A DNA stretch of 64,000 bases, from positions 44,628 to 108,627 of IMG/VR virus record IMGVR_UViG_3300002026_000015; one strand, written 5' to 3'. The DNA is from a virus. A program made the translations under genes and the position numbers. The notes under the pieces were generated by a model. It did no database searches. It was not told the DNA's origin and saw only the letters and a list, made by a program, of their open reading frames with translations. Below are positions 8,402 to 63,840 of this stretch, piece after piece (within the stretch, counting starts at the first letter, position 1; every line of letters begins with the position of its first letter).

Positions 8402-8413
8402 CATTAGTATGTT
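8402..8413 (-). promoter_or_regulatory. Putative late promoter AACA-N6-TG
   Basis: Minus strand AACATACTAATG, identical to the site at 41960-41971. Confidence 0.7.
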
Positions 8414-8458
8414 TTAGCCGAACATATGTTTTAGTATTTTAAAAACAACTTCTAAATG

Positions 8459-8472
8459 TATATACTATAGTG
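8459..8472 (+). promoter_or_regulatory. Putative early promoter
   Basis: TATATACTATAGTG upstream of ligase. Confidence 0.5.
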
Positions 8473-8506
8473 GGAACTAGGACCGAGTTTAATATTGGAG
8501 GTTTAT

Positions 8507-10420
8507 ATGATACAAAATCAGGAAGAGTTGTATACAATGCTCATGGAGGCTAAGGATGCCTACTATGAAGGAAAACCGTTTATGTCGGATATAGATTTTG
8601 ATGCAATGGAAAATACTCTTAGAAGTATGAATCCTACACATATTTACTTCACTAAAGTTGGAAGTGAGGCAAGTACCGTAAGTGATACCGTTGTGCACGG
8701 AATTCCAATGTTATCTATGAGTAAGTTGAAATTTGGAGATGATATTGAATCATGGTTTATATCAAACAATATCCCTTCCGATGCAGATATATTATCTGAA
8801 CCTAAAATCGATGGTATCGCAGGATCTATAGTATACTCTGGGAGTGGTAAACTTATTTACGGCTCAACTCGTGGCGACGGGAAAAATGGAAAACTTATAA
8901 ATTTCATAGGCAAAAAAGAAATTGTTAATGTGCCAATGCAATTAGATTTCCGAGGAGATGGCGAATGGTGCAAGAAATTTGAAGTCAGAGGCGAATTCTA
9001 TATACCAGTTAAATACGGTGAAACCATTTTCAAAGATATGCCTTTGAGAAACGTTGCCGCAGGGATAATAAAATCCGGCGAAAACACTGAGTATCTAAAA
9101 TTCATGCCATATCAAGCTATAGTTGATGACAAACCATTTATGGATGGTGAAAATTATGGCGAAGAGATATTTGATTTTGATATGTTGGAAAGACTGTTGG
9201 AATTTGAAGTCGTGGATCATCTACTCATTGGTAAAGATGATATCGAAGATGTGATGCGAAATTATATCGAAAAAGGTAGAGATTTATTCGAGTATGAAAC
9301 CGATGGGATGGTTTTTATTGTAAATGATAAGAAACTTCAAGAAAAGATTGATTCTAGAAAGAAAGTTTCAGCTTATCACCATTACAATATCGCAATTAAA
9401 CCGCCAGCGAGAACTGCGGAAACGAAATTGAATACTATTGAAATCAGTATTGGAAAGTCTGGAAGAATTATTCCTACAGGAATTGTATATCCTGTCGTAA
9501 TTGCAAATATCGAAATCTCAAGAGCAACGTTGAACAATGTCGCTCATATGGAAGAATTTGGCGATGTATTTTACAAAAATGCATCAGTTGTAATTAAACG
9601 TGCAAATGATGTAATTCCAAAAATTGTAGAAATTTCAGATGATGGGGATAGGACTCAGCCTATACTAATTCCAACGGAGTGTCCATCTTGTGGAACTAAA
9701 CTTATAAGAGAAGGTAGAAATTTATTCTGCACAAATAAATTAAGTTGTCCTGGAATTGCAATAGCTAGAATTTGCCATTGGATTGAAACTATGGATATCA
9801 AAGATGTTGGTTTCAAAGCAATTGAAGCGGCGTACAATCTTGGAATTATCCGAAGCATCGTAGATCTCTATAGACCAGGACTTGAAGAAAAATTGTATCT
9901 TATCGATGGATTTGCTGATGGTAAAGTCGGAATCTTTATGAATGCAATTAATCTGTCAAAGGTTAATGTTTCAGATGTCGATATCATAAAAGGTATTGGT
10001 CTTACTGGGATCGGACGTCGTGTTCTTGAGAATTACAATCTAACTTCAATTGATACTCTCAAAGATGATCTTCAGCATCAGCAGAAGTATTCAGTTTGTA
10101 GAGTTCTATTGGAATGGTTGAATGAGGGTGATAACTATAATCTACTTAAAGAACTTAAAGTGATTATGGGATCTAAATCATCTAGCGTAAATAAGAATGG
10201 TAAGATTGTTGTAATGACTGGTACATTTGATATAGGTCGCAAAGATCTAATTAAAGAACTAGAATCTCGCGGATACACCGTTTCAGACAGTGTAACCAAA
10301 AGTACAACAATATTACTTGCAGGTGTTGACGGTGAATCAAATACGAAGTTTAAGAAAGCTTTGGAATTTGGTATAAGAATTGAAACAAATTTAGAAAACT
10401 TCTTAAAAGGAGATCATTAA
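8507..10420 (+). CDS. ligA: NAD-dependent DNA ligase
   Basis: PMLSM, EPKIDG (KxDG), TRGDG, EVRGE, TDG, RATLNN, RANDVIP, C4 zinc finger CPSC..C..C, C-terminal BRCT. Confidence 0.96.
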   Translation: MIQNQEELYTMLMEAKDAYYEGKPFMSDIDFDAMENTLRSMNPTHIYFTKVGSEASTVSDTVVHGIPMLSMSKLKFGDDIESWFISNNIPSDADILSEPKIDGIAGSIVYSGSGKLIYGSTRGDGKNGKLINFIGKKEIVNVPMQLDFRGDGEWCKKFEVRGEFYIPVKYGETIFKDMPLRNVAAGIIKSGENTEYLKFMPYQAIVDDKPFMDGENYGEEIFDFDMLERLLEFEVVDHLLIGKDDIEDVMRNYIEKGRDLFEYETDGMVFIVNDKKLQEKIDSRKKVSAYHHYNIAIKPPARTAETKLNTIEISIGKSGRIIPTGIVYPVVIANIEISRATLNNVAHMEEFGDVFYKNASVVIKRANDVIPKIVEISDDGDRTQPILIPTECPSCGTKLIREGRNLFCTNKLSCPGIAIARICHWIETMDIKDVGFKAIEAAYNLGIIRSIVDLYRPGLEEKLYLIDGFADGKVGIFMNAINLSKVNVSDVDIIKGIGLTGIGRRVLENYNLTSIDTLKDDLQHQQKYSVCRVLLEWLNEGDNYNLLKELKVIMGSKSSSVNKNGKIVVMTGTFDIGRKDLIKELESRGYTVSDSVTKSTTILLAGVDGESNTKFKKALEFGIRIETNLENFLKGDH

Positions 10421-10421
10421 A

Positions 10422-10856
10422 ATGGTTAGTGAAAGATTTCAAAAAGGCTTTAATAAACGTCCAAATCCAACAAGAGAGGATATCTCACACAGATATCCTA
10501 ATAAAGACGATGCGTGGAAATTTGAAAAACGCCCTCGGAAACATAGTTCACATCATGATCTTGAAAAAGACATGTCGTATATAAAACTTCCGAGAGATCA
10601 ACGTCTTCAAATTCTTGAAACTGAAGGATTTGATAAGCGTGCTAAGTATGATCCCTGTTCGAGAATTCGAGCAATTTATTATCGTAACAATAAGTTTGAC
10701 ATTGGTTTCTTAAAAGATCATTGTCCTATTGTACGATTGGCTGGACATACTCTACATGAGGCAGTTCATAATGAAGGGTTTTATGACAATGATCCTGAAG
10801 TTAAAAACTTGTTCAAGAAAATGAGAAAACGTAATGAATCCAGAAATCAAAATTAA
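10422..10856 (+). CDS. Basic hypothetical protein
   Basis: AGGAG RBS; D(P/H)xxxxR short helical repeats. Confidence 0.75.
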   Translation: MVSERFQKGFNKRPNPTREDISHRYPNKDDAWKFEKRPRKHSSHHDLEKDMSYIKLPRDQRLQILETEGFDKRAKYDPCSRIRAIYYRNNKFDIGFLKDHCPIVRLAGHTLHEAVHNEGFYDNDPEVKNLFKKMRKRNESRNQN

Positions 10857-11283
10857 AACTCCGGATCTTGCGAAACTTGATTGTACAATTTTCGAACTAT
10901 TTGACAAACTTGTTGAGCATCGTATAGATTTCACGGTAAATGAATTAAACGAAGATCTCTCTATAAAACGTGTGGTTATGAATGCACTTGAACAATTTGC
11001 ATTAATAACTCCAGGTCCAGAGAAAGAACCGATGTTTTTCAGTATCGTGTTTTATGATAACGATGATATCAATAAACCGATAGTACTGAAGTTTAAGTAC
11101 TTTGAAGATGTAGTGGTCAATTTCTGTAAATATGGGTATCCTTCGAAAAGACGACATAATTTCTCAACGATAATTGATATTCCTTCCAAAGAGTTTATCA
11201 AAAATCGTATCGACAATTCTTTCATTGTTGATAAATTTTATGTATGGTTTATTTGGATGAGACGTCATATTACGTATAGATGA
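10834..11283 (+). CDS. Hypothetical protein
   Basis: Overlaps upstream gene, co-oriented. Confidence 0.7.
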   Translation: MNPEIKIKTPDLAKLDCTIFELFDKLVEHRIDFTVNELNEDLSIKRVVMNALEQFALITPGPEKEPMFFSIVFYDNDDINKPIVLKFKYFEDVVVNFCKYGYPSKRRHNFSTIIDIPSKEFIKNRIDNSFIVDKFYVWFIWMRRHITYR

Positions 11284-11311
11284 TAAATTCTTACTTTATT
11301 ATTACACGTAA

Positions 11312-11323
11312 AACAATCTATTG
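11312..11323 (+). promoter_or_regulatory. Putative late promoter
   Basis: AACA-ATCTAT-TG. Confidence 0.7.
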
Positions 11324-11353
11324 TATTAATTTAAACCTTATTTAGGAGAGAAT

Positions 11354-12784: not shown

Positions 12785-12795
12785 GATCAGAATAT

Positions 12796-12827
12796 TAGAG
12801 TAGGGGTAATCCCTACTCTATTTTTTT
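12796..12827 (+). terminator. Intrinsic terminator
   Basis: TAGAGTAGGG-GTAAT-CCCTACTCTA plus T7. Confidence 0.8.
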
Positions 12828-12846
12828 GATAAATAAGGAGATTTAT

Positions 12847-13335: not shown

Positions 13336-13338
13336 TAG

Positions 13339-13366
13339 ATATACTGCGGGAATTCCCGCAGTATAT
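13339..13366. terminator. Bidirectional terminator / perfect 28-bp palindrome
   Basis: ATATACTGCGGGAATTCCCGCAGTATAT between convergent genes. Confidence 0.75.
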
Positions 13367-14579: not shown

Positions 14580-14580
14580 A

Positions 14581-15786
14581 TTATCCTTTAACCTTTGTTG
14601 TGATAAGTTTAGAACTCATAGAAGACAGTGTTGTAGTTGCCATAGGTGGAACAGGAAGTATAGGCACTGCCGCAACCGCATCCAATTGTGCACACATGAC
14701 TGTGAGTAGTTGGATTAATTCGGGACCTTTAACTAAAGGTTTTCCTCCAGCCCCTTTGAAATTGGCTGTACCATTTTTATCAATTTGAGGTTTTGGAGGT
14801 AGAGGTTTCTTACCACTAGGTGCTCCAAATCCCATTCCTCCAGGAACAACCATACCCGTTACAGTTAAAACTTTAGCGTCAGCTATTATTGTCGGAGATG
14901 TAACAGTTCTCATTTTATTGGTTATGTCAGCTTTCTGATAATCTTCGGTAATTTTTGTACCTTTAAGTGAAAGGTTTGTAATCTTACCGTCAAATTTCTT
15001 ACTCTCCCACTCAACATTATCTATTTTGATAACACCTTTTTTACTTTCAATTTCAATATTATCGTCAGCACTTATATACATCTTCTTCGCACTAATGTGA
15101 ATCGCATCACCACTTAAAAGTATTGTACTCTCTGCTTCATTTATCATTGAAACTTCATCAGTCGATGTGGTTATAGATATAGTTCGTTTACCATCTGTCA
15201 ATGACATTTGTCCTGTAGAACCATCTATGATGATATCATACTCTGAAACTTCACCATTTTTCTTAGACATGTGAATTCTGATAACTTGGTTAACAGAGTC
15301 GTATCTATGATAATATGTGTTATCGTCAGACATATCTTCACCAGCATATTTTCCACTAGCAGGAATTGCAAAGTGTGCTATATCGGATGGTTTAAATTTA
15401 GACTGATCTCTACAGAATGGTTTTATATATAAACTATTGATATCCTGATCTAAAACACCAATTGTAACTTGTTCACCTTCAATAAGTCTTGGCATTGACA
15501 TTCCATAAACTTTAGACATTGTAAGTTTTACAAAGTTTGATGTCGAGCATTTATCTGCTCCAAATTTCGTATTAACTTTATTCAAACACTTAGATATATC
15601 GAGTTTAACTTCTTCTTCAAATACTCCATCTTTTATAGGAATGCCCATCATAAGACGAGGAATATATATCCCATATCTATTTTCACCAACATCATCGGCA
15701 GTTTTAAGAACTATACCGAGACTATTATCTCTATAAAGATCATAAGATCTTTTCAACAAAGCTTCTTTATAATCTGCTAATTTCAT
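14581..15786 (-). CDS. Baseplate hub/central spike protein (gp5/VgrG-like)
   Basis: N-terminal OB-like IYIPRLM..P..GEQV, beta-helix repeats, C-terminal KPLVKGxEL; adjacent to gp53-like gene. Confidence 0.65.
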   Translation of the reverse strand: MKLADYKEALLKRSYDLYRDNSLGIVLKTADDVGENRYGIYIPRLMMGIPIKDGVFEEEVKLDISKCLNKVNTKFGADKCSTSNFVKLTMSKVYGMSMPRLIEGEQVTIGVLDQDINSLYIKPFCRDQSKFKPSDIAHFAIPASGKYAGEDMSDDNTYYHRYDSVNQVIRIHMSKKNGEVSEYDIIIDGSTGQMSLTDGKRTISITTSTDEVSMINEAESTILLSGDAIHISAKKMYISADDNIEIESKKGVIKIDNVEWESKKFDGKITNLSLKGTKITEDYQKADITNKMRTVTSPTIIADAKVLTVTGMVVPGGMGFGAPSGKKPLPPKPQIDKNGTANFKGAGGKPLVKGPELIQLLTVMCAQLDAVAAVPILPVPPMATTTLSSMSSKLITTKVKG

Positions 15787-15806
15787 ATTTACCTCTTTAG
15801 TTGTCA

Positions 15807-15818
15807 CATTAGGATGTT
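15807..15818 (-). promoter_or_regulatory. Putative late promoter
   Basis: Minus strand AACA-TCCTAA-TG. Confidence 0.7.
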
Positions 15819-15862
15819 TCAAGAGTACTTAATATAGATTTATTAACCTCAAGACATACCTA

Positions 15863-15876: not shown

Positions 15877-15900
15877 AGAACTATTATGAAGGGTAAGTAA

Positions 15901-18516: not shown

Positions 18517-18528
18517 AACATTCATGTG
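18517..18528 (+). promoter_or_regulatory. Putative late promoter
   Basis: AACA-TTCATG-TG. Confidence 0.65.
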
Positions 18529-21162: not shown

Positions 21163-21198
21163 CACTAATATGTTTCATCGTAAGGAAACATAATAATG
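21163..21198. promoter_or_regulatory. Back-to-back divergent late promoters
   Basis: Minus AACA-TATTAG-TG (21163-21174); plus AACA-TAATAA-TG (21187-21198). Confidence 0.7.
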
Positions 21199-22928: not shown

Positions 22929-22940
22929 AACACTATATTG
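22929..22940 (+). promoter_or_regulatory. Putative late promoter
   Basis: AACA-CTATAT-TG. Confidence 0.65.
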
Positions 22941-24981: not shown

Positions 24982-25536
24982 TTAGTTAGGATGAGCTTTC
25001 TTTGCATCGTCCCATGTCCCACCTTCACGTAGAACAGACACTCTGCGTCTAAGTTTATCATGTCCACGTCTAGAAGCCTTAGCAGGACAAACTCCAAGAT
25101 TTTTAACCAACGCAACTACAGTATTTATAACATCGCCACATTCGTCTTCAGTATGATCCTTCTCATTCTTTTCATGAGCTTCGATAGCTTCATCAATCTC
25201 TTCATAAACTTTCTCTTTAAAGAAAGATATAAGAGATTTTCTATCTTTTTTACCATCTGGAGTCTTATTGATAAAGTCTGCATTGTCATCTCTCCACTGG
25301 GAGATATGATCTAATGAAACTTTATTCTCCTGTAGTTGGGATTGATTGTCACGGTGCTCTTTCAATTCCTCAAGCCAATTTATCATAGATGTCAATTCGC
25401 CATCAGAAAAACTGATATCTTCGTTTTTAGATTTAGCATCGAAGATACGATTAATACAATTATTCAAACTCATTCTCGTACTATCCTCAGATTCTAAACC
25501 AAAAATGGCAAATATTTCATTTTCTAAACTATTCAT
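24982..25536 (-). CDS. MazG-like NTP pyrophosphohydrolase with N-terminal extra domain
   Basis: EEIDEA...DECGDV metal-binding motif, KLRRR, WDDAK; N-terminal WLEELKEHR helix. Confidence 0.8.
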   Translation of the reverse strand: MNSLENEIFAIFGLESEDSTRMSLNNCINRIFDAKSKNEDISFSDGELTSMINWLEELKEHRDNQSQLQENKVSLDHISQWRDDNADFINKTPDGKKDRKSLISFFKEKVYEEIDEAIEAHEKNEKDHTEDECGDVINTVVALVKNLGVCPAKASRRGHDKLRRRVSVLREGGTWDDAKKAHPN

Positions 25537-26218: not shown

Positions 26219-26253
26219 CAATATGATGTTATTGTACGAAAAACATCATATTA
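26219..26253. promoter_or_regulatory. Back-to-back divergent late promoters forming an inverted repeat
   Basis: AATATGATGTT...AACATCATATT; both strands read AACA-TCATAT-TR. Confidence 0.72.
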
Positions 26254-31946: not shown

Positions 31947-31996
31947 CAATAATATGTTTAACACTATATACATTCTCAGACGAAAACATATTATTG
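31947..31996. promoter_or_regulatory. Divergent late promoters (13-bp inverted repeat)
   Basis: CAATAATATGTTT...AAACATATTATTG. Confidence 0.72.
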
Positions 31997-34634: not shown

Positions 34635-34646
34635 CAATATAATGTT
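34635..34646 (-). promoter_or_regulatory. Putative late promoter of endolysin operon
   Basis: Minus strand AACA-TTATAT-TG. Confidence 0.7.
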
Positions 34647-37422: not shown

Positions 37423-40400
37423 TCAAGAATCTAAAAACTTTCTAGCGATCTCCTTAGACTTCTCAACCATCACATGACTGAGAGTACCAATCATTAACGT
37501 CGAATATACCATACGCGCCATATTACTAAATGCACCCATAGTACCATCAAGTATAATTCCATCATCTGTAACAGGTTCTTTCCCTTCAGGAACAACCTGT
37601 GCAACAACGGATTTAATACAGCTAGATAATGTCAATTTGTCCCCTACGCCCATACCTTGTTCATGCTTGATATAATACTCAATTACAATGCCACCTTCAT
37701 CAGGGATAATGCAACCATTAATACGTTTATCAGCACCAGCTTGTAAAGGCTCAGTTTGTTTCAATTGCATCGTAGTTTTGATATTATCGATCCCAGAAGC
37801 CTTTTCAACTTTATTTCGAGCTTTCAGATCCTTAAACCAATCCATTACAAATTTATGAACTGAATCGCTCATAGTTTCCAATGGAACGGTATAATAAACT
37901 TTAATGTCAATAATCTCGCCAGTAGCATTAGCTTTAGGAGTCTGACGTGCCATAGCCATCACATCTTCGCTCATTTCGCCAAGGTCTCCCATAAGTTTAT
38001 TAACATCTTCATCTCCACTGTCTTCAAATACGAGAATAGGGTCACCTTTTAATACGTGATCTCCTCTTTTCTTAAATGAGACAATATTAGTATCTTTTGT
38101 AAGAACGATTTGTTTTCGTTTTACAACTTCAGTATATAGTTTTCTACTAAAGCGTTCGGTAATATTCGATGAGTCATCATCTGTTACAGATTTCTCATGA
38201 AGCACCAGCTTTGCGAGGACACCATCAACGCCTCTAATAGAACCAAATACATCCTTTTTGTAAAATTGCGCTTCATAGCCTAGTATATCACCTTTTTTAA
38301 ATTTTTGACCCTCTTTTACATTAGGGACGATATTATTTGGGAAATAGAAGGAACTATTACGCTGAACACTTTCGCCAATACCTATAGATTCCGAAGAACC
38401 ATCTGCATACTCAACGATCATGATTTTATTGGCTTCATCAATTCGTTTACACACACCATTGTTTCTAGCTTTAGGAACGTAGCTATTCCCTACCATATAT
38501 GGAGTACATTTATCCATACCGGTAGAAACAACTTGTAACGAAGCTTTTTTAACTTTGATAATGTGTTTAGTTTGACCAGATGTAAACCCAATTCGTTTAG
38601 GGTCATCATTACTATTAACAAATGCAATATTCGCTTCTTCAGGAGATGCAATATCGCCAAGTCTTAATTTTTTAGCTTCTTCTTTAGATCTACAAATATC
38701 AATATATCCGCGTGTAGATAATACATTTGGATTTGTAGTCAGCTGTTTAGTAATTCCAACACTTCCGTTATCTACGGAACTGATAGCAATCGTGCCAATA
38801 GCACTTCTATCATATGCACGTTTTTCAAGAGTAAACACGCGATCATTATTAATCCCGCCGGGCCCCTTGAAAGTTACAATAGATTTACTCTTCAACTCAT
38901 TTACAGGGTTTGTTGAATCATAATTCTCAAGAATAAATGATTTATGCAAACCTACCATAACCTGATCTTGTTGAATAGATATTCTACCTGTACCAGTATT
39001 GCTCTGTTTATAGAGTCTGTACTGAGCTGAGATAGCCTTGTACAGAATTACAGATACATTCTCGAATCCACGGATACGATAGTTCTCAAGAGAAGTTTCA
39101 GGAGTATACGTATTATCAGACAATAACGAATTTGCGTACAAGAAGAGTTCCAAGAAGTCTGTTGGAAGTTTCAGATCTATAAGAATCTCTTCAGTTATTT
39201 TATCGATAAATAACTCTTTGAATGCAGTATGACCTTTATATACATTTCTACTATGAGCAATTTCATAGAAGTAATCGATATAAGGTTTTTCAGTATCAAA
39301 ATCAGCAAATTCATAATCTTCACAATTCATATATGCAAGTCCATTGAGAAGAAGAGACGCGGAAGTATTTGTATCATTATAATACAAATATCCATCTTTA
39401 AATCTCACATAAACTCGTTCATCGTTTTGTAAACGTTTCTCAGCGAACTCAACTTTAATCTTATCAGTGTTAATAACTTTACTAAGACCATATAGAGCTC
39501 CCAAGAATGAAATCAAAGCGTAGTCTCTACTTTGAAGTTCAATTTTAGTAAACATTCGACGTTTCGCAATATTCATCGTTTTCAATACTTCATCAAGATT
39601 CTTCATAACCTGATACATGCGAATATCTTCAAAAATCTTATCACAAACGCTATCTGCGGAATCTCGGAGATCAACATCGATTACACGACGTTCTTTCCAG
39701 TCAATACCGACAGGGAGTCTGTTAACATCGAATTTGTATGTAAGGTTATTATCCTTAATCAATTTTCGAAGTTCTTTTTGATTGAAGATATATTCACTAT
39801 TGTGAAGTTTTGAAACCCCAACAATGAATCTATGATACTTCGCAGCGAGTACATCGTATTCGATATTAGTAATTACAGAAGTGTTTTCTTTACTATTATC
39901 ACCGAAGAATACTTTAAATCTTGGATTATTCACAAGATATTTATTAAGCAACTTCTGTAAGTAAGATACGTTTCTTGTAATTACATTACCTTGACGATAG
40001 ATAAAACATTTGTTATAATTTGAACTAATCATAACAAGGTCTGGTTTACACTTGATTACAGGAAGAAGTGTCAATTGTTTTTTCAATATCTTCTTATTCC
40101 CGCCAACGAGAAGGAAACCATCTTCATCGAGTTTTGGAATATCAACACGGACCGTATGACGTTTATCATTATCATCAACAAATTTAAACACATATGTGTA
40201 TTTATTTGTCAACTGATCAGACGTATCATGTTTTTCAACGTCAGTGATATGCATCGCAATACTCTTATTTTCGCTAAGACTCTTCATGACATTTACAATA
40301 TCATGCTCCATAGTCTTTTCAATATAAGAGCGTTCCATATCCATAAGGCGAGAACCCTTAACGGAATTATCACGAACTTTTACATCAGGCATAGATGTAT

Positions 40401-41928
40401 CAATAGATGTAACTTTATTATCCAAGATAATTTCTTCGATAGTCTTCTCACCTATTTTAAGAGATTTATATTTATCTCTTATAGCCTGACGTCTACGAAT
40501 CTGGGCAGGTGTAAGTTTAGGTTTATTACTTCTACTTACGGTTGCCAATAGATTTCGTATATCAGAATCCACATCTTCGTCTTTTGATCCAGTTTCGGTT
40601 CCGTCTTGTACGGTGCCTCCACTATCATCATTCCCATCTCCGACTCCGTCGTCCGATAACATCCCTTCATCGATTTCTTCTTCTTCAATAGGAATATCAT
40701 CAGGGATATCGTTAACGTCATCGATATCATCAACAATCTCAGCATCGGAACTCTCCTCTTCATCAATAAACACGTCGTTAATATCTTCATCACCATCATT
40801 TTTAACAGCTTTAGATGCCATCAAACCTTCAGCTTTTTGTTGAGCAAGTTTCGCAACTTTATCACTATTCAGCATCATATCGACAGCGCCATCAAGAACG
40901 TCATCTTTTTTATTGAGAATAGGTTTCTGAGTATCTATAACTGAATTTTCAATAGTCTCAACGGTATCGTCAATCATATCATCAGTTACACCAATTGCTT
41001 CAAGAGTTTCAGTATTATTTCTGAGAGTTATCTTACAAAGATCTCTCAATCTAGCTAATATCGAAACACCTTTCATTCTCTGAATATCTTTATCGTTATT
41101 GGAGTTAAAAATAAATCCATTACCGTTATTGTTGTAGAATACGATAGATGTATCTTTGATAAGATCATAAATCTTCACAAGAATAGGATCTTCTTTATAC
41201 CCAATAACTCCAGCGATTATACATCTGATGATAAATATAGGGATCATTTCATCCATAAGATTCTTAACTGCTCTAGGAATTTGAACAGATGGATCAATAT
41301 ATTTAACAAGATTAGAGTTGGAAGAAGACATTTTTATACCCATGACAATTTTACCATGAGTCTTACGAACACCCTCACCTACAGTGAAAAGGTCTGTAGT
41401 AAAGATTTCGGATTTACATTTTGGATCGTTCAATATGAAATTGAACCAATCGTAAAAGAATTCTTCAAAATGTTTAATAAACCTGTTATCTCCCCATACT
41501 GCATGGTTGTCAAATTTAGGAAATACATTTTCCAGAACTTTACCATAGTCGTAGATATAGTTTTTACGACCAGTTCTAACGAAAACAGTTTTCTTAGTTC
41601 TAAGAGATGGTAGATCTGAATTGATAACTCGTGGAATATTTTCATCATACTTGAAGAATTTTCTTGTAAAGATATTATCCTTTATACGAAATCTTCTAGG
41701 CATCCAGTAAAATGTGACACGCTCACCATATTTATAACCAAATATTGTTTGAATTCCATCCACAATATTATTTGTAGAAGATTCAAAAGGAAACACTAAG
41801 CCTACATTAACTTTATCATTATCAGTTATTCTAAGTCCTGTGGTATAATTTCCACCATTCTTAAATTTTCTGAGTCTTAAGCTTTTGTAGATTGAACTTA
41901 GTGTAGGCTGAATTACGTCATCAGACAT
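37423..41928 (-). CDS. Phage multisubunit RNA polymerase beta subunit, virion type (phiKZ gp178-like)
   Basis: DIPKLD..F..GG, KGPGG, DDPKRIGFTSGQTKH, DDDS, GVGDKL..KSVV, P...DG, ARM; ends before the beta C-terminal clamp part; late promoter. Confidence 0.9.
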   Translation of the reverse strand: MSDDVIQPTLSSIYKSLRLRKFKNGGNYTTGLRITDNDKVNVGLVFPFESSTNNIVDGIQTIFGYKYGERVTFYWMPRRFRIKDNIFTRKFFKYDENIPRVINSDLPSLRTKKTVFVRTGRKNYIYDYGKVLENVFPKFDNHAVWGDNRFIKHFEEFFYDWFNFILNDPKCKSEIFTTDLFTVGEGVRKTHGKIVMGIKMSSSNSNLVKYIDPSVQIPRAVKNLMDEMIPIFIIRCIIAGVIGYKEDPILVKIYDLIKDTSIVFYNNNGNGFIFNSNNDKDIQRMKGVSILARLRDLCKITLRNNTETLEAIGVTDDMIDDTVETIENSVIDTQKPILNKKDDVLDGAVDMMLNSDKVAKLAQQKAEGLMASKAVKNDGDEDINDVFIDEEESSDAEIVDDIDDVNDIPDDIPIEEEEIDEGMLSDDGVGDGNDDSGGTVQDGTETGSKDEDVDSDIRNLLATVSRSNKPKLTPAQIRRRQAIRDKYKSLKIGEKTIEEIILDNKVTSIDTSMPDVKVRDNSVKGSRLMDMERSYIEKTMEHDIVNVMKSLSENKSIAMHITDVEKHDTSDQLTNKYTYVFKFVDDNDKRHTVRVDIPKLDEDGFLLVGGNKKILKKQLTLLPVIKCKPDLVMISSNYNKCFIYRQGNVITRNVSYLQKLLNKYLVNNPRFKVFFGDNSKENTSVITNIEYDVLAAKYHRFIVGVSKLHNSEYIFNQKELRKLIKDNNLTYKFDVNRLPVGIDWKERRVIDVDLRDSADSVCDKIFEDIRMYQVMKNLDEVLKTMNIAKRRMFTKIELQSRDYALISFLGALYGLSKVINTDKIKVEFAEKRLQNDERVYVRFKDGYLYYNDTNTSASLLLNGLAYMNCEDYEFADFDTEKPYIDYFYEIAHSRNVYKGHTAFKELFIDKITEEILIDLKLPTDFLELFLYANSLLSDNTYTPETSLENYRIRGFENVSVILYKAISAQYRLYKQSNTGTGRISIQQDQVMVGLHKSFILENYDSTNPVNELKSKSIVTFKGPGGINNDRVFTLEKRAYDRSAIGTIAISSVDNGSVGITKQLTTNPNVLSTRGYIDICRSKEEAKKLRLGDIASPEEANIAFVNSNDDPKRIGFTSGQTKHIIKVKKASLQVVSTGMDKCTPYMVGNSYVPKARNNGVCKRIDEANKIMIVEYADGSSESIGIGESVQRNSSFYFPNNIVPNVKEGQKFKKGDILGYEAQFYKKDVFGSIRGVDGVLAKLVLHEKSVTDDDSSNITERFSRKLYTEVVKRKQIVLTKDTNIVSFKKRGDHVLKGDPILVFEDSGDEDVNKLMGDLGEMSEDVMAMARQTPKANATGEIIDIKVYYTVPLETMSDSVHKFVMDWFKDLKARNKVEKASGIDNIKTTMQLKQTEPLQAGADKRINGCIIPDEGGIVIEYYIKHEQGMGVGDKLTLSSCIKSVVAQVVPEGKEPVTDDGIILDGTMGAFSNMARMVYSTLMIGTLSHVMVEKSKEIARKFLDS

Positions 41929-41959: not shown

Positions 41960-41971
41960 CATTAGTATGTT
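41960..41971 (-). promoter_or_regulatory. Putative late promoter
   Basis: Minus strand AACA-TACTAA-TG. Confidence 0.7.
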
Positions 41972-47279: not shown

Positions 47280-47291
47280 AACATTCTAGTG
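47280..47291 (+). promoter_or_regulatory. Putative late promoter with no downstream protein gene
   Basis: AACA-TTCTAG-TG. Confidence 0.65.
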
Positions 47292-47572
47292 GTAAGAAGT
47301 AGGTATCGTTGTTGACGTTATATATCATGCGCATTATTCTAATCGCTGATCGGAAATAATAAATTACAACAACTTGAATTACACGAAAACCTCACTGGGC
47401 GTAGAACATTCGGTATTTAAAAGAATAAACAACTCCCCGTTTCTTTTAAATATACACCATATATATTGACCACTGGAACCTCTCGGTGCACGTTCTAACT
47501 CAGTATATATTGGATCCGTATTTTTTAGTGATTGCTAGATAGTTGGGTCGAAAGGCCCAGCTATTTATTTTT
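47291..47572 (+). ncRNA. Candidate ~280-nt structured late non-coding RNA
   Basis: Promoter at 5' end, GAAA terminator at 3' end, several long stems, no RBS-supported ORF. Confidence 0.55.
47539..47572 (+). terminator. Intrinsic terminator, GAAA tetraloop
   Basis: ATAGTTGGGTC-GAAA-GGCCCAGCTAT plus T-rich tail. Confidence 0.8.
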
Positions 47573-47628
47573 GACTTGATTTTTAACTATATATTTAATA
47601 TTGGAGATAATATCAATAGGAGGTATCC

Positions 47629-57173: not shown

Positions 57174-57177
57174 AATG

Positions 57178-57209
57178 TAAATAGTGGGGATCACTCCCCA
57201 CTATTTATT
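57178..57209. terminator. Bidirectional terminator
   Basis: TAAATAGTGGGG..CCCCACTATTTA. Confidence 0.8.
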
Positions 57210-57210
57210 A

Positions 57211-57717
57211 TTATCGATCAAGTTTACTTTCCAATACCATTCGATTTCTTGGAGAGTATTGTGTCAATTTCGTGAGAGACATATTCAACATAATCTTTGC
57301 AGCGACAAATATTGCACTGTCATTGTATGGATCTGTATCATATATCACTTCGCTAATTCCTGATTGAATAATCGCTTTCGCACACTCATTGCATGGGGCC
57401 ATTGTAACGTATAGTTTACAACCTTCAATACTTGTACCAGCTCTTTGAGCCCCGGTGATAGCATTGAGTTCAGCGTGAACTACATAGAGATATTTTGTAT
57501 TAAGTGGATTTTCATCAGTTTTACCCCAAGGAAGTTCATCATCATTAATATCATTAGGGAAACCATTATAACCTACAGAAACAACTCTATTGTTATTGTC
57601 TACAATGACTGCGCCAACTTGGGTTGAAGGATCTTTACTTCTCATGGCTATTAGATTCGCCATTTGCATAAATGTTTCATCCCACGTAATAACGTTTTCT
57701 CTTTTAAGAGACGACAT
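57211..57717 (-). CDS. dCMP deaminase
   Basis: RSKDPSTQVGA, GYNG, HAELNAI, PCNECAK. Confidence 0.95.
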   Translation of the reverse strand: MSSLKRENVITWDETFMQMANLIAMRSKDPSTQVGAVIVDNNNRVVSVGYNGFPNDINDDELPWGKTDENPLNTKYLYVVHAELNAITGAQRAGTSIEGCKLYVTMAPCNECAKAIIQSGISEVIYDTDPYNDSAIFVAAKIMLNMSLTKLTQYSPRNRMVLESKLDR

Positions 57718-58489
57718 ACCACTCCTCCGCAGCTTTTTCGATAGTTTCAATTGCAGTTTTAAGAACTTCATCTTCTGTAGAGGTGAATTGTATTCCTGTT
57801 ATTGGCGCATATAAATCTTTATGTGTTACAATTTCTGAGTACACACGATTTACAACCATTGAGAATGCAACGTTGTCGTTGTAATCCAACTCTTGTTCAT
57901 TACCATTGACTCGTTTATTGAGTCTTCTACTGAACTCATCCATAGAAGCTTGCCAATTTTCATTTATAGTACAAAGTACTATAGTCCTTATTGGCATTTC
58001 AATATTATACTCTTTCATTTTATCGAACACGATATCACAATTCTTGCGAATACGTTCGATATCATTGTCCTCATCGAGGATACCAGATTGATAAATGACC
58101 GATGATAGATATCCTCTGTCACTGATGAGGAGGTTTCCGTTACGAATTAACGAGATATCCGAAGGTTTTACACTTCGCATTTCATTTCCAAGCTGATTGT
58201 TTTTTCTATCAATCATGAAAATTTCTGTAAGTTTTCCGATGAAATCATCGTCATTTGCAGGTTCAGCGAATGCATTACTTCCAAATGTTTCTTCGATACT
58301 CTTCTTAACACTGCGATCAGGTTCATTAGAGAAGCTTGCGCTCTTAAACTTAAGTTTAAGATTGTTTGTAAGAGTAGAAGTTCCTGTAAGTTCTCCGCCT
58401 TCGATGTAAACAATTTTACTTGAGACTGGGAGTTCATTGTATAAGCGTCTGATTAGTTGGACAAGGATGTCGACTTTTTCTTTAAACAT
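57704..58489 (-). CDS. Thymidylate-kinase-like dNMP kinase with atypical P-loop
   Basis: IEGGELTGTST, NEP, DRGYLSSVIYQ. Confidence 0.8.
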   Translation of the reverse strand: MFKEKVDILVQLIRRLYNELPVSSKIVYIEGGELTGTSTLTNNLKLKFKSASFSNEPDRSVKKSIEETFGSNAFAEPANDDDFIGKLTEIFMIDRKNNQLGNEMRSVKPSDISLIRNGNLLISDRGYLSSVIYQSGILDEDNDIERIRKNCDIVFDKMKEYNIEMPIRTIVLCTINENWQASMDEFSRRLNKRVNGNEQELDYNDNVAFSMVVNRVYSEIVTHKDLYAPITGIQFTSTEDEVLKTAIETIEKAAEEWYVVS

Positions 58490-58514
58490 TTCGTTTCCTA
58501 GGTTTGAGAAAGAA

Positions 58515-58540
58515 AGTGTAGGTGGAAATCCCACCTACAC
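58515..58540. terminator. Hairpin, probable terminator on minus strand
   Basis: GTGTAGGTGG-AAATC-CCACCTACAC. Confidence 0.6.
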
Positions 58541-58550
58541 CCAGATTACA

Positions 58551-58902: not shown

Positions 58903-58940
58903 AACACTCTCCTAAAATAAGGTAAACATTAATTATTTGT

Positions 58941-58952
58941 CATAATAATGTT
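58941..58952 (-). promoter_or_regulatory. Putative late promoter embedded in an inverted repeat
   Basis: Minus AACA-TTATTA-TG within ATAAGGTAAACATTA...TAATGTTTACCTTAT. Confidence 0.6.
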
Positions 58953-58972
58953 TACCTTATTATTATAGAAAA

Positions 58973-61927
58973 TTACATAAAAGATTTTCTAACTCTTGGC
59001 CAAATAGATTCATCCGAAGTAGTAGTCCCTGGTTTGCCAATTTTAACTCTAAACGAATTTCCGACAAATATCATTTCGAATGAAATTCTATGTTGTATTT
59101 TTGGAGTTGTTAGATTATAACCCATACTCACTTCAATGTACGCATGGATATATCCTCCTATATTTTTAGCTATGACTTTACCAAAGCAATTTGTATAATC
59201 AGGAGTTGAAAATGATGCATCCGTTTGTGGTTGCCAATATGATACTTCACTAGAATCAGATCCGCCATGTTGAGAAACAAGTACGGAATCTATGAACTCC
59301 CCATACAAAGCCTCTATAGTAAATGTCCCGAACAATAATAAACCTGTAGTTATTTCAATCTGTTCGCCGTTGTTCAAATTATATTGTTTACCATTGGCCA
59401 AATCTACTTTATTGTCATCTCTAGAAAGTTCCTTTAAATTAACAATATCATCAACCGTAATGTTTGTTGTAGCCGATCCGCCATTAGAACCGCTCAACCC
59501 ATATCTATATACAGATAAAGCTGTTACGCCACCATTACTAGCAGAGGTTGGTCCAGTGGATACCGCATCAGGACTTATTCTTATAGTTTCAAAACTTAAT
59601 GTAGTATCTGTTCCAAATATACTATCGTCATTTGAAAGCGTTAAAGATTTTGAAAACTTTACAAGTTTTGCAAAATTTAATGCAGTTAATGAAGCTGATT
59701 GATTTGCAACAACGGCATCACCATTATCATAGCCTCCTGTGCCCTGATTTTCTCTTTTTCTGATAGTTACGGTCAGAATTTGCTTATTACCATTATAATT
59801 GGTATTATCACTATGAATTATTTCACTTATAGGATCAAAATTTATATAATTTACATTATCAATTTCGATTCTTATAGGATCATCATCACTCTCAGTGGCC
59901 GAATATACATCATCTCTAAAACGTTTCAAGTATAAACTTTTCGAGAGTTTATTTAAATCATACATATCATTTACAGTAAAACTGAAATCTTCAGACCATT
60001 CTGTGTTACTAGTACTCCCGGATTTATACCGTTTATAATATCTGGAAAAAGTTATTGAATTTGCGTACCCATTTCTAGTAGTTGTAGTTCCACTGCTCGT
60101 TGATCTAGTTGGGAGTATATTAAACGATGCCAGTCCGTTATTATCTACGCCAAATCTTTTAACTATTTCATTTGGAATTAATCCCCAATAGCTACCATTG
60201 CTAATAGGATTTCTACCATAGTTATTATCAGTTTTAGACACATAATAAGTTCTAATTCCATCAGTATCTTCGAGATAGACATATGAATTATTAGCATATG
60301 TTGAAGTTGAAGACCACAAACCGCCGCCAGAGAGATTTTCAATATTTAAATCTCCACCAACTTCCAAACTAATAAGCTTCATTTTGCCAGTAAATGAATC
60401 AAATGTCATCGTTTCCGATATATCATTATCATTAGTACGACCTACATTGAAAGTCATCCCGTTAATTGTATAATTGGAAGTTTTAGTCTTGTAATTGGTG
60501 TAATACTCGCTAGTTGCATAGACATAAACACCGTTTGATGTCATTGATATAGCCTCTCCATTTACAACTGTATACACAGGTTTTTCACCATCTACAATTG
60601 AAAATTCTCCATTCTGGATCCTGAAATTACTTCTTGTAAGTTCAGATCTCGAACCAGTATATCCTGAAGAGAAACCGAATGTCAACAATGAATCATCTGC
60701 GGTTATTTTAAGTTTATTGGCTCTAGAGTAGTTTGTATCAAATGGTCTATGGCTAGAAATCTCAATTCTTCCAAGAGGATTTCCGTTTATATCAAAATTT
60801 GGATTAAGAGAAAATCCTGATATACCATTTACATTATCTCCGCCATATACAATTATTCCATCTCTGTAAAATTTTGTATATTTGCGTAGTTTCGGATCTG
60901 TTAGATTTCTAGTACGTTTCTCAAATATTAAAGATTCTTGAGAAAGTTTTGTATTAATTAATACTTCATCGTTTAATGCCGAAACAAATCTCGGTTCTCT
61001 AGATATTTTAACCGTAGGAGAAATGGTATCGCCAGATTCATCTCCATATACGGTTGTCATATTTTTAGACATAGAAGGATTTATTTCGATAACAGCGCCT
61101 GCAAGATGACCTGTCGCTATTGTTGATTGAGGACTTCTTATAATATTTAGAACTTCTCTTTTGGTTGAAAGATCTACCGTAGTAAATATTCCATCATATC
61201 TACTGTTCATCGTTCCAAATTGAAGATTTCCTTCAACAACCCCACTGCCAGTACTGTAAAAGTGGCCGTTGTTATATATCCAAAAATGCGGCTGAAAATA
61301 ATAACCGGATCCATCAGGAGCAGGGGACTCAGATCTACCAACAGACAGATTGAAGAATTGACTGTGATTTTCAGTTAAATGATCGTGGAAATCTCGCATT
61401 GACATCTTTTTACGAACATTCGAATCATCAGTTGAAAAAGTCAACTTCAATTTGTCTAACATATCATTTGAAGAACTGTTAACTCCTATGTCCGAATTTG
61501 TAAGAGAGTCTTTCCCTAAGATATATTCGTTAACGAATTTCATCAAGCTAACTTTTTCAATCTTGCCAGGAACAGTTGACGAAACAGCTTTAGTTTCAAC
61601 AGACAGCTTACTGTCAACTGTGAATACGGGGTTGGCTTCATATTTCCCATTTACAAAATCCAAAACGTTTGCACCAGTAACGGTACCACGTTTGATAGAC
61701 CCATCTACAGAATCTGAATAGTACGCATTGAAAATATACTTATCGCTCAATCCTGAACCGATAGCATTCCCATTATTGAAAAGTCGTTTTTCCAAATTTG
61801 ATATAGTTATAACTGCGTCACGTTTACCGGTTACAGGATCTGCAACCTTCTTCACAACGTATAATATATCATTATCTTCCAAGCTCGTTGTCGGAGCTCT
61901 ATCCGTTATTGGAGATTTCATATTCAT
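58973..61927 (-). CDS. Tail fibre-like protein
   Basis: N-terminal SPITD....SL..NDILYVV fibre-type motif, G/S/T/N-rich, CBM5/12-like GLWSSTSTYANNSYV..P....YW. Confidence 0.7.
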   Translation of the reverse strand: MNMKSPITDRAPTTSLEDNDILYVVKKVADPVTGKRDAVITISNLEKRLFNNGNAIGSGLSDKYIFNAYYSDSVDGSIKRGTVTGANVLDFVNGKYEANPVFTVDSKLSVETKAVSSTVPGKIEKVSLMKFVNEYILGKDSLTNSDIGVNSSSNDMLDKLKLTFSTDDSNVRKKMSMRDFHDHLTENHSQFFNLSVGRSESPAPDGSGYYFQPHFWIYNNGHFYSTGSGVVEGNLQFGTMNSRYDGIFTTVDLSTKREVLNIIRSPQSTIATGHLAGAVIEINPSMSKNMTTVYGDESGDTISPTVKISREPRFVSALNDEVLINTKLSQESLIFEKRTRNLTDPKLRKYTKFYRDGIIVYGGDNVNGISGFSLNPNFDINGNPLGRIEISSHRPFDTNYSRANKLKITADDSLLTFGFSSGYTGSRSELTRSNFRIQNGEFSIVDGEKPVYTVVNGEAISMTSNGVYVYATSEYYTNYKTKTSNYTINGMTFNVGRTNDNDISETMTFDSFTGKMKLISLEVGGDLNIENLSGGGLWSSTSTYANNSYVYLEDTDGIRTYYVSKTDNNYGRNPISNGSYWGLIPNEIVKRFGVDNNGLASFNILPTRSTSSGTTTTRNGYANSITFSRYYKRYKSGSTSNTEWSEDFSFTVNDMYDLNKLSKSLYLKRFRDDVYSATESDDDPIRIEIDNVNYINFDPISEIIHSDNTNYNGNKQILTVTIRKRENQGTGGYDNGDAVVANQSASLTALNFAKLVKFSKSLTLSNDDSIFGTDTTLSFETIRISPDAVSTGPTSASNGGVTALSVYRYGLSGSNGGSATTNITVDDIVNLKELSRDDNKVDLANGKQYNLNNGEQIEITTGLLLFGTFTIEALYGEFIDSVLVSQHGGSDSSEVSYWQPQTDASFSTPDYTNCFGKVIAKNIGGYIHAYIEVSMGYNLTTPKIQHRISFEMIFVGNSFRVKIGKPGTTTSDESIWPRVRKSFM

Positions 61928-61941
61928 GATAAACCTCTTCC

Positions 61942-63777
61942 TTATTTAATTTCATTGTTTGAGTATGAAATGAATGTTTCTTGTTCTTCTTCATATACGA
62001 TTGGAACTCCATCCACTCCACAAATAATCATCGCTTCAGGATTAATACCAGGGATCTCTTCAGTAACTACGTTTCCATCAATAATATCACCATATTTAGG
62101 ATATGGGTAATTATCAAAGTCACCTTTAGTTGCTGTGAAATCGTATCTGTTAAATGATCCGCTATAACGGAAAGGAACTCCCCATTTAGCTTTATTCAAT
62201 AAACCACTTGCATCATTTATTTCGATAGCGATATCGATTAAACTTAATGCATATCTTCTAGTTACATCTCTACGATGATTATAGAAATTGGCATCAATTG
62301 AGCCTGGTCGAATTAGATCTGACAATTCGGAACTTCCGTAAATATAGTGCGGAGTTGTGTCTTTAATATCCCCAATATATCCGTCTTCTCTAATTCTAGT
62401 TGGTTCAGACGAACCAGTCTTAAACGTAACATACGGTTTACGATATCCATCTCCGCCATTTCCACCTGTTGGGATAGCCATTTGACTAACAACTTCGAAG
62501 TATGGAGATATAATAAAGTGAACAATATTTCCCTGATCTTTAGATAATACAAAGCCTATTACAGGAATTGTTATTGCTCCTATCACAATATTACCATGAC
62601 AATTATAAGTACGCTCATCTACGAAATTGTAAACTTCTCTCATCAAATTGTATAAGTCAAAATTGTGATTTCCGAAATCAGTTCGTATTACATGACTTCC
62701 AGGAAGTTCATTATTACTTACATATGAATCCGGTTGGATTTTAAGATTTAATAACTTAGAAGTTATTCTATCTTGAGCAGGGATATTTGTTATACACTTT
62801 ATCGTATTATCATTACCCTTGTAATACTTCGGTTTTACAATTTTATCTGTATAACCTGGTTTTACATCTATAGGACCATATCCATTAGTTGAAAGATTTC
62901 CACAACCTATGATATTCCCACCAGCGACCTCAGTGAGTCCCGGAGCAGATAATGATTGATGGAGAGTTACCCCACCAACTCCTGTAATCAAAGGTGTAAT
63001 TTCGATATTCATTGGAATAATATTGTCATACACGTCATCGACAGTAATGGTCATCGCTTGTCTAGTTATATAGAAATCGACAAATCCTGGAGTTGTCATA
63101 GATGCATGTATAAGAGTATTACAATCATCAACACTCTTTATATACTCTGCCATAAATCCTATACCATATCTATCTTCCAAATATCCTGTGGTTATATAAC
63201 CTTTCATGGACATCAATGGCGTACTAATACGGACTTCGAGTAGAAGTTTTCCGATATTAACCGTTTCTGGAGATAGAGGGGATTTTCTTGGATCTCTAAC
63301 AAGTTTTTCGCCAAGTTCACAAGTGAATACTTTCTTCCAATAATTATGAGAATAGACCGCGTTTGTACGTATGATATAACTACCTGTAATTATATTTTTA
63401 CGTGGATCATTCTTCAAATTTTGAACGTGATCATATACCGAATCGGTAAACTCACAAACTTTATTTTCTGCGATAAATGATGTTTCTGCAACTTTATCTT
63501 TATGTACCATAAGTCTAGAACTTGTGGTCATCACATTCTTGACAACTGCGTAGAAATTCTTAGATAAACTTGAGGGCATATTATCTAGAAGTTCCAATAA
63601 ATACTCATGTTTTTCTCTAACTTCTCCAAGAGATGAGTTTATACAATTCATCAAGTCATCTGGAGAAATAGTATCTACGTCTTTCAGACTTAGCAATTCT
63701 TTTACAGCTTCTTCAAAAACTAACGTTCCGTTGTTTTTGTAACCAGCATAATTGTTGGAATTCGTTATATTTGCCAT
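61942..63777 (-). CDS. Probable tail-associated structural protein
   Basis: Late promoter; upstream of tail fibre; AGGA RBS before ATG 63777. Confidence 0.6.
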   Translation of the reverse strand: MANITNSNNYAGYKNNGTLVFEEAVKELLSLKDVDTISPDDLMNCINSSLGEVREKHEYLLELLDNMPSSLSKNFYAVVKNVMTTSSRLMVHKDKVAETSFIAENKVCEFTDSVYDHVQNLKNDPRKNIITGSYIIRTNAVYSHNYWKKVFTCELGEKLVRDPRKSPLSPETVNIGKLLLEVRISTPLMSMKGYITTGYLEDRYGIGFMAEYIKSVDDCNTLIHASMTTPGFVDFYITRQAMTITVDDVYDNIIPMNIEITPLITGVGGVTLHQSLSAPGLTEVAGGNIIGCGNLSTNGYGPIDVKPGYTDKIVKPKYYKGNDNTIKCITNIPAQDRITSKLLNLKIQPDSYVSNNELPGSHVIRTDFGNHNFDLYNLMREVYNFVDERTYNCHGNIVIGAITIPVIGFVLSKDQGNIVHFIISPYFEVVSQMAIPTGGNGGDGYRKPYVTFKTGSSEPTRIREDGYIGDIKDTTPHYIYGSSELSDLIRPGSIDANFYNHRRDVTRRYALSLIDIAIEINDASGLLNKAKWGVPFRYSGSFNRYDFTATKGDFDNYPYPKYGDIIDGNVVTEEIPGINPEAMIICGVDGVPIVYEEEQETFISYSNNEIK

Positions 63778-63806
63778 AATTCCTACCATATTAACATTAA
63801 TGTTTA

Positions 63807-63840
63807 CATTGATATGTTTTGATATGAAAACATCCCAATG
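63807..63840. promoter_or_regulatory. Back-to-back divergent late promoters
   Basis: Minus AACA-TATCAA-TG (63807-63818); plus AACA-TCCCAA-TG (63829-63840). Confidence 0.7.

Follow-up and report, generated by a model that had tools for sequence, protein, structure and literature searches.

Putative AR9-type late promoters in a fragment of an uncultivated jumbo phage whose DNA probably contains thymine

The late promoters of the Bacillus phage AR9, mapped by differential RNA sequencing (dRNA-seq), have the form A(-11)ACA-N6-T-A/G(+1), and the early promoters the form AAATATATATTAT-N6-G (PMC5312081). In AR9 and PBS1, the late promoters are read by a non-virion RNA polymerase (nvRNAP) holoenzyme with the subunit gp226 (PMC5312081, PMC5449584, PMC9209446). 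The template uracil at -10 is held in a pocket between the 2.1bis helix of gp226 and R363 of the beta-N subunit (Fraser et al., PMC9209446). The side chain of gp226 Val206 would clash with the methyl group of thymine, a V206G mutant accepts thymine, and the valine is invariant among the gp226 homologues of phages with deoxyuridine-containing (dU) DNA (PMC9209446). The present study deals with boxes of the type AACA-N6-TR in a 64-kb stretch of viral DNA (the window), which forms the last 64 kb of the linear IMG/VR record IMGVR_UViG_3300002026_000015 (G000; 108,627 bp). To our knowledge, the AR9 late promoter is the sole case of a multisubunit RNA polymerase (RNAP) that reads a -10-like element in the template strand and depends on deoxyuridine at that place; according to one suggestion, this requirement keeps the short motif from firing on host DNA. 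An earlier note on the window had listed 18 such boxes as possible late promoters of an AR9-type nvRNAP and had taken them as a possible sign of uracil DNA, with a thymine-DNA relative reading the same motif as the alternative. We found that the boxes do behave as AR9-type late promoters, with the same core, N6 spacer and T-R start as in AR9 and a median leader of about 31 nucleotides (nt), and that the alternative is the better reading of the base content, the status of G000 being judged from its relatives. The joint explanation that accounts best for the data, namely late promoters of an AR9-type nvRNAP in DNA that most likely contains thymine, is in our view likely to be correct.

G000 is a jumbo-phage fragment with an estimated completeness of 41% (CheckV), and the GC content is 34%. 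All 18 listed 12-mers are present at their coordinates and on their strands. Counted over the whole window, AACA-N6-TR is not enriched (86 matches versus 110.7 +/- 10.3 in shuffles), but this raw count is uninformative, and placement tests were therefore used. The 108.6-kb contig has 166 matches, of which 33 are contained entirely in the 7.2% of noncoding DNA, where 11.9 were expected; the rate excess is 3.2-fold (binomial p = 9e-8), and spacers of N4, N5 and N7 after AACA reach 0.5- to 1.0-fold in the same noncoding DNA. A spaced-dyad search that compared noncoding with coding DNA and was blind to AR9 returned ACAT-N4-ATG (25 noncoding, 4 coding) as the top dyad once terminator hairpins and ribosome-binding sites had been set aside. 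The iterated weight matrix converged on A-AACA-T-nn-TAA-TG-T-R, and the consensus of the lineage is aAACAt-nn-TAA-TG-t. For the string AAACATNNNWWTG, derived from this matrix, the window has 12 occurrences, 11 of them at listed sites, versus 2.1 +/- 1.5 in shuffles; this count test is partly circular because the string comes from the same data. A further test, which scored sites 5-60 nt upstream of any start codon with a Shine-Dalgarno (SD) sequence, was dropped as noisy; in both G000 and its relative G001, high scores were also reached with N3 and N8 spacers, apparently an effect of coding-frame periodicity.

The distribution of the box among related phages was investigated with a profile of virion RNAP beta homologues, which retrieved 79 IMG/VR loci. 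The closest relative is G001 (200,251 bp, 72% complete), whose proteins are 62-69% identical to those of G000 (virion RNAP beta 62%, terminase 67%, DnaB 66%). It overlaps G000 only at its two ends and thus largely indicates what the missing part of G000 may hold. In the virion RNAP beta tree (quick search, midpoint-rooted), G000 pairs with G001 (support 96) within a clade of 10 members with a support of 100 (G000, G001, G002, G006, G003, G005, G004, G030, G007 and G008); the phages LPJP1, S6 and phiR1-37 are located in the other half of the tree, apart from this clade. AACA-N6-TG is 14-fold enriched in the noncoding DNA of G001, with 36 of 87 matches in 4.7% of the sequence (p = 6e-25), and an enrichment specific for the N6 spacer was also observed in G001, G002, G003, G019, phiR1-37 and the AR9 control. 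On AR9, the same noncoding-to-coding metric gave 3.6x for the TA form, 1.8x for the TG form and at most 1.2x for other spacers. In phiR1-37 (loci L176-L189), 61 of 189 AACA-N6-TA matches lie in noncoding DNA, a 6.4-fold enrichment; according to the AR9 transcriptome paper (PMC5312081), no late consensus had been found for this phage. The median predicted leaders are 31 nt in G000, 33 in G001, 35 in G019, 31 in phiR1-37 and 32 in AR9.

In the four relatives G001, G002, G006 and G003, orthologous genes are again preceded by the box, although their proteins are only 23-54% identical and the flanking spacers cannot be aligned. The orthologues concerned are the head-tail, 404-aa (amino acid), endonuclease-like, endolysin, virion RNAP beta, 558-aa, 611-aa and baseplate proteins, and the extended form aAACAt-ttA-TG is common to G000, G001 and G002. 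Of all the evidence for a functional box, this conservation is the strongest. The motif is not universal in the clade, as AACA-N6 is not enriched in G004 (99% complete, gp226 homologue present; loci L151-L164), which probably uses a different late promoter.

The 18 sites of the window are given below in window numbering; the predicted +1 is the G or A of the T-G/A pair. Thirteen are strong sites with a matrix score of at least 13.6, and five are core-only sites (18517, 22929, 26219, 26242, 47280).

8402..8413, minus strand: late box AACATACTAATG; predicted +1 8402, ATG 8378, leader 24 nt; gene for a virion structural or head-tail joining-like protein, whose G002 homologue has an orthologous box
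11312..11323, plus strand: late box AACAATCTATTG; predicted +1 11323, ATG 11354; 476-aa protein
15807..15818, minus strand: late box AACATCCTAATG; predicted +1 15807, ATG 15786; baseplate-assembly-like protein (phrog_3216); orthologous box in G003
18517..18528, plus strand: core-only match AACATTCATGTG, score -3.3; 31 nt ahead of the start of a Dda-like superfamily 1 helicase; weak candidate
21163..21174, minus strand: late box AACATATTAGTG, divergent pair with the 21187 box; predicted +1 21163, ATG 21136; 404-aa protein (phrog_2921); orthologous box in G002
21187..21198, plus strand: late box AACATAATAATG; predicted +1 21198, ATG 21241; 345-aa protein
22929..22940, plus strand: core match AACACTATATTG, score 6.8; 15 nt ahead of the internal ATG 22955 in the open reading frame (ORF) of an SbcD-like phosphoesterase; weak candidate
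26219..26230, minus strand: core match AACATCATATTG, score 0.4, without the upstream A; TTG 26189 with GGAGG as SD sequence
26242..26253, plus strand: core match AACATCATATTA, score 4.3, with A as +1; ATG 26272
31947..31958, minus strand: late box AACATATTATTG; predicted +1 31947, TTG 31928 with GGAGG as SD sequence; 138-aa protein
31985..31996, plus strand: late box AACATATTATTG; predicted +1 31996, ATG 32019; homologue of the AR9 endonuclease (RefSeq gp232); orthologous box in G002
34635..34646, minus strand: late box AACATTATATTG; predicted +1 34635, ATG 34607; endolysin with chitinase-like N-terminus and M15 C-terminus; TA-form box upstream of the G002 homologue
41960..41971, minus strand: late box AACATACTAATG; predicted +1 41960, ATG 41928; virion RNAP beta; orthologous box in G002
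47280..47291, plus strand: core match AACATTCTAGTG, 8 nt past the dnaB stop codon
49999..50010, plus strand: late box AACATTACAATG; predicted +1 50010, ATG 50035; 558-aa protein followed by a 1819-aa protein; orthologous boxes in G001, G002 and G003
58941..58952, minus strand: late box AACATTATTATG; predicted +1 58941, GGAG-preceded ATG about 40 nt downstream; small gene
63807..63818, minus strand: late box AACATATCAATG; predicted +1 63807, ATG 63777; 611-aa protein followed by a 984-aa protein; orthologous box in G001
63829..63840, plus strand: late box AACATCCCAATG; predicted +1 63840, ATG 63872; the ORF runs off the contig end

For 16 of the 18, a long ORF opens 15-43 nt past the predicted +1 with a start codon behind an SD sequence; the exceptions are 47280(+), which is followed by about 340 nt without an ORF, and 58941(-), which has no clear start. 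The +1 of the G000 boxes is nearly always G, and the genes behind them include those for the endolysin, for virion RNAP beta and for two structural components, a virion and a baseplate protein. Four bidirectional spacers (21163/21187, 26219/26242, 31947/31985 and 63807/63829) contain two boxes, each of which faces its own gene.

The polymerase that would read these boxes was traced in the relatives. Pieces of nvRNAP beta-N, beta-C and beta'-C are encoded by G001. AR9 gp226 as a single query found no match in five relatives, and a profile of seven homologues (AR9, BpSp, Machias, S6, SA1, phiR1-37, LPJP1) was therefore needed; it matches a protein of about 540 aa in G001 with an E-value of 5e-15. 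Of 49 related IMG/VR records, 35 contain a member of the gp226 family. Conversely, a profile built from ten uncultivated members alone retrieved AR9 gp226 (7S01_A; E = 1.1e-54, residues 13-448 of 464) as its sole match in the PDB. The earlier proposal that an AR9-type nvRNAP is in use is thus supported by the subunits and the gp226 homologue of the sister phage; neither was located on the G000 contig. An AR9-type holoenzyme is well supported for the lineage, and for G000 we infer it from G001. As a side observation, the gp226 homologue of LPJP1 (locus L100) is annotated as two coding sequences with an in-frame stop, which could reflect a sequencing error or a split gene.

The G001 homologue retains S245/Y246 of gp226, which contact the non-template AACA, and R363 of beta-N is kept as well. 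The situation is different at position 206, which is Val in all seven references (dU phages) and Lys in G001, with the additional changes Ile207 to Met, Trp208 to Tyr and Tyr210 to Asn. Of 26 uncultivated homologues, only two have V at this position, and the others have G, R, P, E, T, Q, L, I or K; the column agrees with the hidden Markov model (HMM) alignment to 7S01. Glycine is found in G014 and G026 and in four genomes that encode ThyX or ThyA, namely G019, G044, G049 and G048 (loci L105-L133). Judged from the alignment, these Gly206 homologues are natural counterparts of the engineered V206G variant that lets the AR9 nvRNAP accept thymine. The complete genome G033 (333 kb) branches near the dU references; its gp226 homologue, which carries Arg206, is immediately adjacent to a dUTPase gene (116685-118738).

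The boxes share with the late promoters of AR9 and PBS1 the core A(-11)ACA(-8), the N6 spacer, the T-A/G(+1) dinucleotide and a location some 30 nt before the start codon. Virion and lysis genes are served in both systems, a separate AT-rich early class exists, and the sister phage G001 encodes split beta/beta' nvRNAP subunits and a full-length gp226 homologue. AR9 differs in that its +1 is mostly A, whereas here it is G and the box is extended to aAACAt-nn-TAA-TG-t; that Val206, Ile207 and Tyr210 of its 2.1bis helix correspond to K, M and N in the G001 homologue; and that the lineage of G000, as seen in G001, encodes a dUTPase and a ThyX. The G000 lineage is therefore probably not bound by the uracil requirement on which the definition of AR9 recognition rests. 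The dU phage phiR1-37 shows the same kind of enrichment (AACA-N6-TA) and leader length, and its gp226 homologue has Val206; it differs by lacking ThyA, ThyX and dUTPase and, in the virion RNAP beta tree, by falling into the half that does not contain G000. A third system for comparison is phiKZ, a jumbo phage with thymine DNA that has multisubunit RNAPs of both the virion and the non-virion kind, with a fifth, sigma-like subunit (gp68) that is structurally related to gp226 (PMC7598289, PMC9209446) and with a T-G start dinucleotide in its late promoters (TATG, G = +1). Unlike the G000 lineage with its gp226-type specificity subunit, it has no conserved -10-like AACA element. Neither gp68 nor gp54 (chimallin) of phiKZ gave a phmmer match with E < 1e-3 in G000, G001, G002, G003, G004, G006 or G019, a single-sequence search that distant homologues could escape. 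A tubulin/PhuZ-like match was seen within a 412-aa ORF of G001 (118846-119343; 30 bits, Pfam cut-off 33), and a similar one in G019 (38 bits).

The proposed mechanism follows the AR9 scheme. A sigma-like subunit of the gp226 family would recognise the AACA at -11 to -8, about 10 nt upstream of the start, together with nvRNAP beta-N, and transcription would begin at the G, rarely the A, of the T-G/A pair. The resulting mRNAs would have leaders of about 20-45 nt that carry the SD site, and the late boxes would drive virion, lysis and virion-RNAP genes. The nvRNAP genes of G000 are presumed to lie on the unsequenced 59% of the genome, and the promoter grammar of the lineage would be AR9-like but free of the uracil requirement described for AR9. 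That the boxes are nvRNAP late promoters is highly probable on the evidence of placement, spacing and orthologue conservation.

The question of base content was addressed with the enzymes of thymidylate metabolism. G001 encodes a bona fide dUTPase with 105 bits in Pfam and 183 bits against the NCBIfam equivalog (cut-off 103) versus 42 bits for the dCTP-deaminase model; its motifs are GTIDSDYRG and RGDGGFGHTG. About 2.5 kb away lies the gene for a two-domain ThyX of 460 aa (69423-70805; L091:9423-10805), which scores above the cut-off of Pfam and shares about 50% identity, along its entire length, with FAD-dependent thymidylate synthases of Fibrobacterota/Chitinispirillia bacteria, a likeness that offers a possible hint at the host. 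Its N-terminal half contains ES-x-RY and its C-terminal half RHR; a sequence search of the PDB with this ThyX returned nothing significant. None of the five dU references AR9, BpSp, LPJP1, S6 and phiR1-37 encodes ThyA, ThyX or dUTPase, and a dUTPase is present in every member of the G000 clade that is at least 70% complete. The 100% complete genome G019 encodes ThyX, dUTPase and a gp226 homologue with Gly206, and 40 of its 127 AACA-N6-TA matches are noncoding (5.8x), with leaders of about 35 nt; the motif is therefore no marker of uracil DNA. The step from motif to dU DNA taken in the earlier note is not supported in this light, since the note itself had named thymidylate synthase and dUTPase as arguments against it and both occur in the closest relative.

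Three genes of the window bear on the competing proposal that G000 is a uracil-DNA phage whose nvRNAP reads deoxyuridines at template positions -11/-10, as in AR9, and whose dCMP deaminase and thymidylate-kinase-like (TMK-like) kinase supply dUMP/dUDP.

37423-41928, minus strand: virion RNAP beta-like subunit, 1501 aa, assigned by homology to isolate phages
57211-57771, minus strand: dCMP deaminase with zinc deaminase fold (PF00383, E = 7.9e-29)
57704-58534, minus strand: P-loop kinase, weakly dTMP-kinase-like (PF02223, E = 0.0099; phrog_761)

This proposal can draw on a promoter core identical to that of AR9, on a virion RNAP beta that scores 401-429 bits against the dU phages (AR9/PBS1 group, Listeria LPJP1, Staphylococcus S6-like and Yersinia phiR1-37, the best isolate matches with 29-32% identity) versus about 260 bits against phiKZ-like phages, on the adjacency of dCMP deaminase and P-loop kinase and on the lack of ThyA, ThyX and dUTPase genes on the 108-kb fragment. 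The dCMP deaminase predicted earlier was confirmed and is also retrieved by its AR9 counterpart (phmmer, E = 2e-19); for the TMK-like kinase the P-loop fold stands and the dTMP-kinase assignment is weak (24.5 bits against TIGR00041, under the cut-off). A PDB sequence search with the kinase gave nothing significant, and its orthologue in the ThyX-bearing G001 is 35% identical. However, a route from dCMP via dUMP and dTMP to dTDP fits the two enzymes equally well, the sister phage has the dUTPase and the ThyX that the five dU references lack and has not kept Val206, the G000 clade stands apart from LPJP1, S6 and phiR1-37, and G019, which encodes ThyX and dUTPase, uses the same motif. The inhibitor of uracil-DNA glycosylase from AR9 (Ugi) had no phmmer match in G000 or G001; Ugi-type inhibitors are diverse, and this one is not found in all dU phages. 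We consider uracil DNA in G000 unlikely.

Several observations weigh against the reading preferred here, i.e., AR9-type late promoters in thymine DNA. The five core-only sites could be chance matches. The G000 contig contains no nvRNAP or gp226 gene (AR9 protein queries and the gp226 profile), and Lys206 still has a C-beta, so that this residue alone is no proof of thymine tolerance. The 41% complete fragment has no ThyA, ThyX or dUTPase gene, and its dCMP deaminase, of which no counterpart was found in G001, would also fit a dUMP-supplying pathway. The conclusions on enzyme and thymine are drawn from a sister with 62-69% protein identity, and base content can differ among related phages. We nevertheless consider thymine the most likely base of G000 DNA.

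Two further explanations were weighed. The first holds that the boxes are not promoters but, in view of the half-palindrome ACAT...ATGT, binding sites of a dimeric regulator, or else signals for RNA processing where late operons have their 5' ends. The extended consensus is indeed partly palindromic, so that many sites match ACAT-N5-TG on both strands, but the conserved A-A-A upstream of CA gives the box a direction, which is towards the adjacent gene, each bidirectional spacer has two separate boxes and none that is shared, and spacing and leader lengths equal those of the experimentally mapped AR9 promoters, all of which makes this explanation very improbable. Host sigma-70-type promoters with TAATGT or TATTGT as the -10 hexamer are the least credible possibility, because the match of TAATGT to TATAAT at four of six positions is outweighed by the lack of a conserved -35 element, the conservation of AACA and TG rather than of a -10 hexamer, a predicted start that would fall within the hexamer, the two multisubunit RNAPs encoded by the relatives themselves and the AACA-N6 spacing that is kept where the 3' half differs (TA in G019, phiR1-37 and AR9).

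A second, AT-rich class of boxes was found in addition to the late boxes. It is represented in the window by the following 8-mers.

4777..4784, plus strand: early-like box TATATTAAGTnAnGATA, candidate virion-RNAP promoter
15863, 34677 and 36957 (start positions), plus strand: further early-like boxes TATATTAAGTnAnGATA
15829-15836, minus strand: early-like box TATATTAA, just upstream of the late box at 15807

The 8-mer TATATTAA has 13 noncoding versus 3 coding occurrences, and the TATATTAAGTnAnGATA boxes are mainly located in a region of small genes left of the window, with about nine sites there. The AT-rich box (TATATTAAGT...) would mark early genes and is presumably read by the injected virion RNAP. 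It resembles the early (virion RNAP) promoters of AR9 and phiKZ (AR9 early consensus in PMC5312081), and late boxes plus early-like boxes together resemble the two-class promoter scheme of AR9. Gene 14581-15786(-) is preceded by an early-like and a late box in tandem, an arrangement resembling the "continuously expressed" class of AR9. Conserved terminator-like hairpins (GGGGA-GAAA/TTTC-TCCCC) with T-runs are distributed across the contig, e.g. at 47543-47575, and the 8-mers GGGATTTC and GGGAGAAA occur 14 and 12 times, respectively, in noncoding DNA and not at all in coding DNA. Downstream of the box at 47280(+), about 280 nt up to a GAAA-loop hairpin with a T-run contain no ORF with SD support; this orphan unit (47280-47575, plus strand), with a fold z-score of -2.07 and no Rfam match, may represent a small late noncoding RNA. 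Rfam and tRNA scans of the whole window gave no match.

Replication and repair functions encoded by the contig comprise an SbcC/Rad50-like ATPase, an NAD ligase, a Dda-like helicase, a divergent DnaB, a primase-like protein, the exonuclease part of a DNA polymerase and an SbcD-like phosphoesterase; the recognisable structural genes code for a baseplate protein and a head-tail joining/virion protein, and lysis is represented by an endolysin that carries an M15 domain. The MazG-like domain noted before was confirmed:

24982-25536, minus strand: MazG/PRA-PH-like all-alpha NTP pyrophosphohydrolase domain, assigned by domain match

Of the lysins in the earlier note, the M15 peptidase domains were confirmed, the supposed GH19 domain has no Pfam match on the contig, and the endolysin N-terminus matches endolysin and chitinase PHROGs. 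When AR9 proteins (nvRNAP subunits, gp226, Ugi, major capsid, sheath, kinases) were searched against G000, the dCMP deaminase was the sole match, and megablast of 24 kb of G000 revealed no DNA-level match to isolate phages. The protein database places the virion RNAP beta protein of G000 on a 181-kb contig and also holds two homologues, P0002 and P0003, with 70-71% identity to it. The remaining 59% of the genome was not recovered by a scan of viral contigs with this protein, and metagenome scans by protein and by an exact 50-mer from the contig end gave no match.

AR9-like promoter grammar and gp226-type subunits appear to extend over many uncultivated jumbo phages with apparently ordinary thymine DNA, a use of this grammar of which no description was found in the literature searched. 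A broader scenario, to which we give a slight preference, is that a large uncultivated branch of RNAP-encoding jumbo phages, which synthesises thymidylate, breaks down dUTP and thus presumably has thymine DNA, uses AACA-N6-T-A/G together with gp226 in which Val206 is replaced, by Lys in the G000 lineage (G001) and by Gly in G019, G044, G049 and G048; template-strand recognition of AACA would then be ancestral and strict uracil dependence a later development in the branch of AR9, S6 and phiR1-37. For the annotation of metagenomic jumbo phages, AACA-N6-TR alone should not be used to call dU DNA, and ThyA/ThyX, dUTPase and gp226 Val206 are better markers. If thymine-DNA relatives use so short a motif, it has to be asked how specificity is kept, and the extended aAACAt-nn-TAA-TG-t box would be one candidate answer. 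It would likewise have to be asked which residues set uracil versus thymine reading, and the natural variation at position 206 would provide a ready series of variants.

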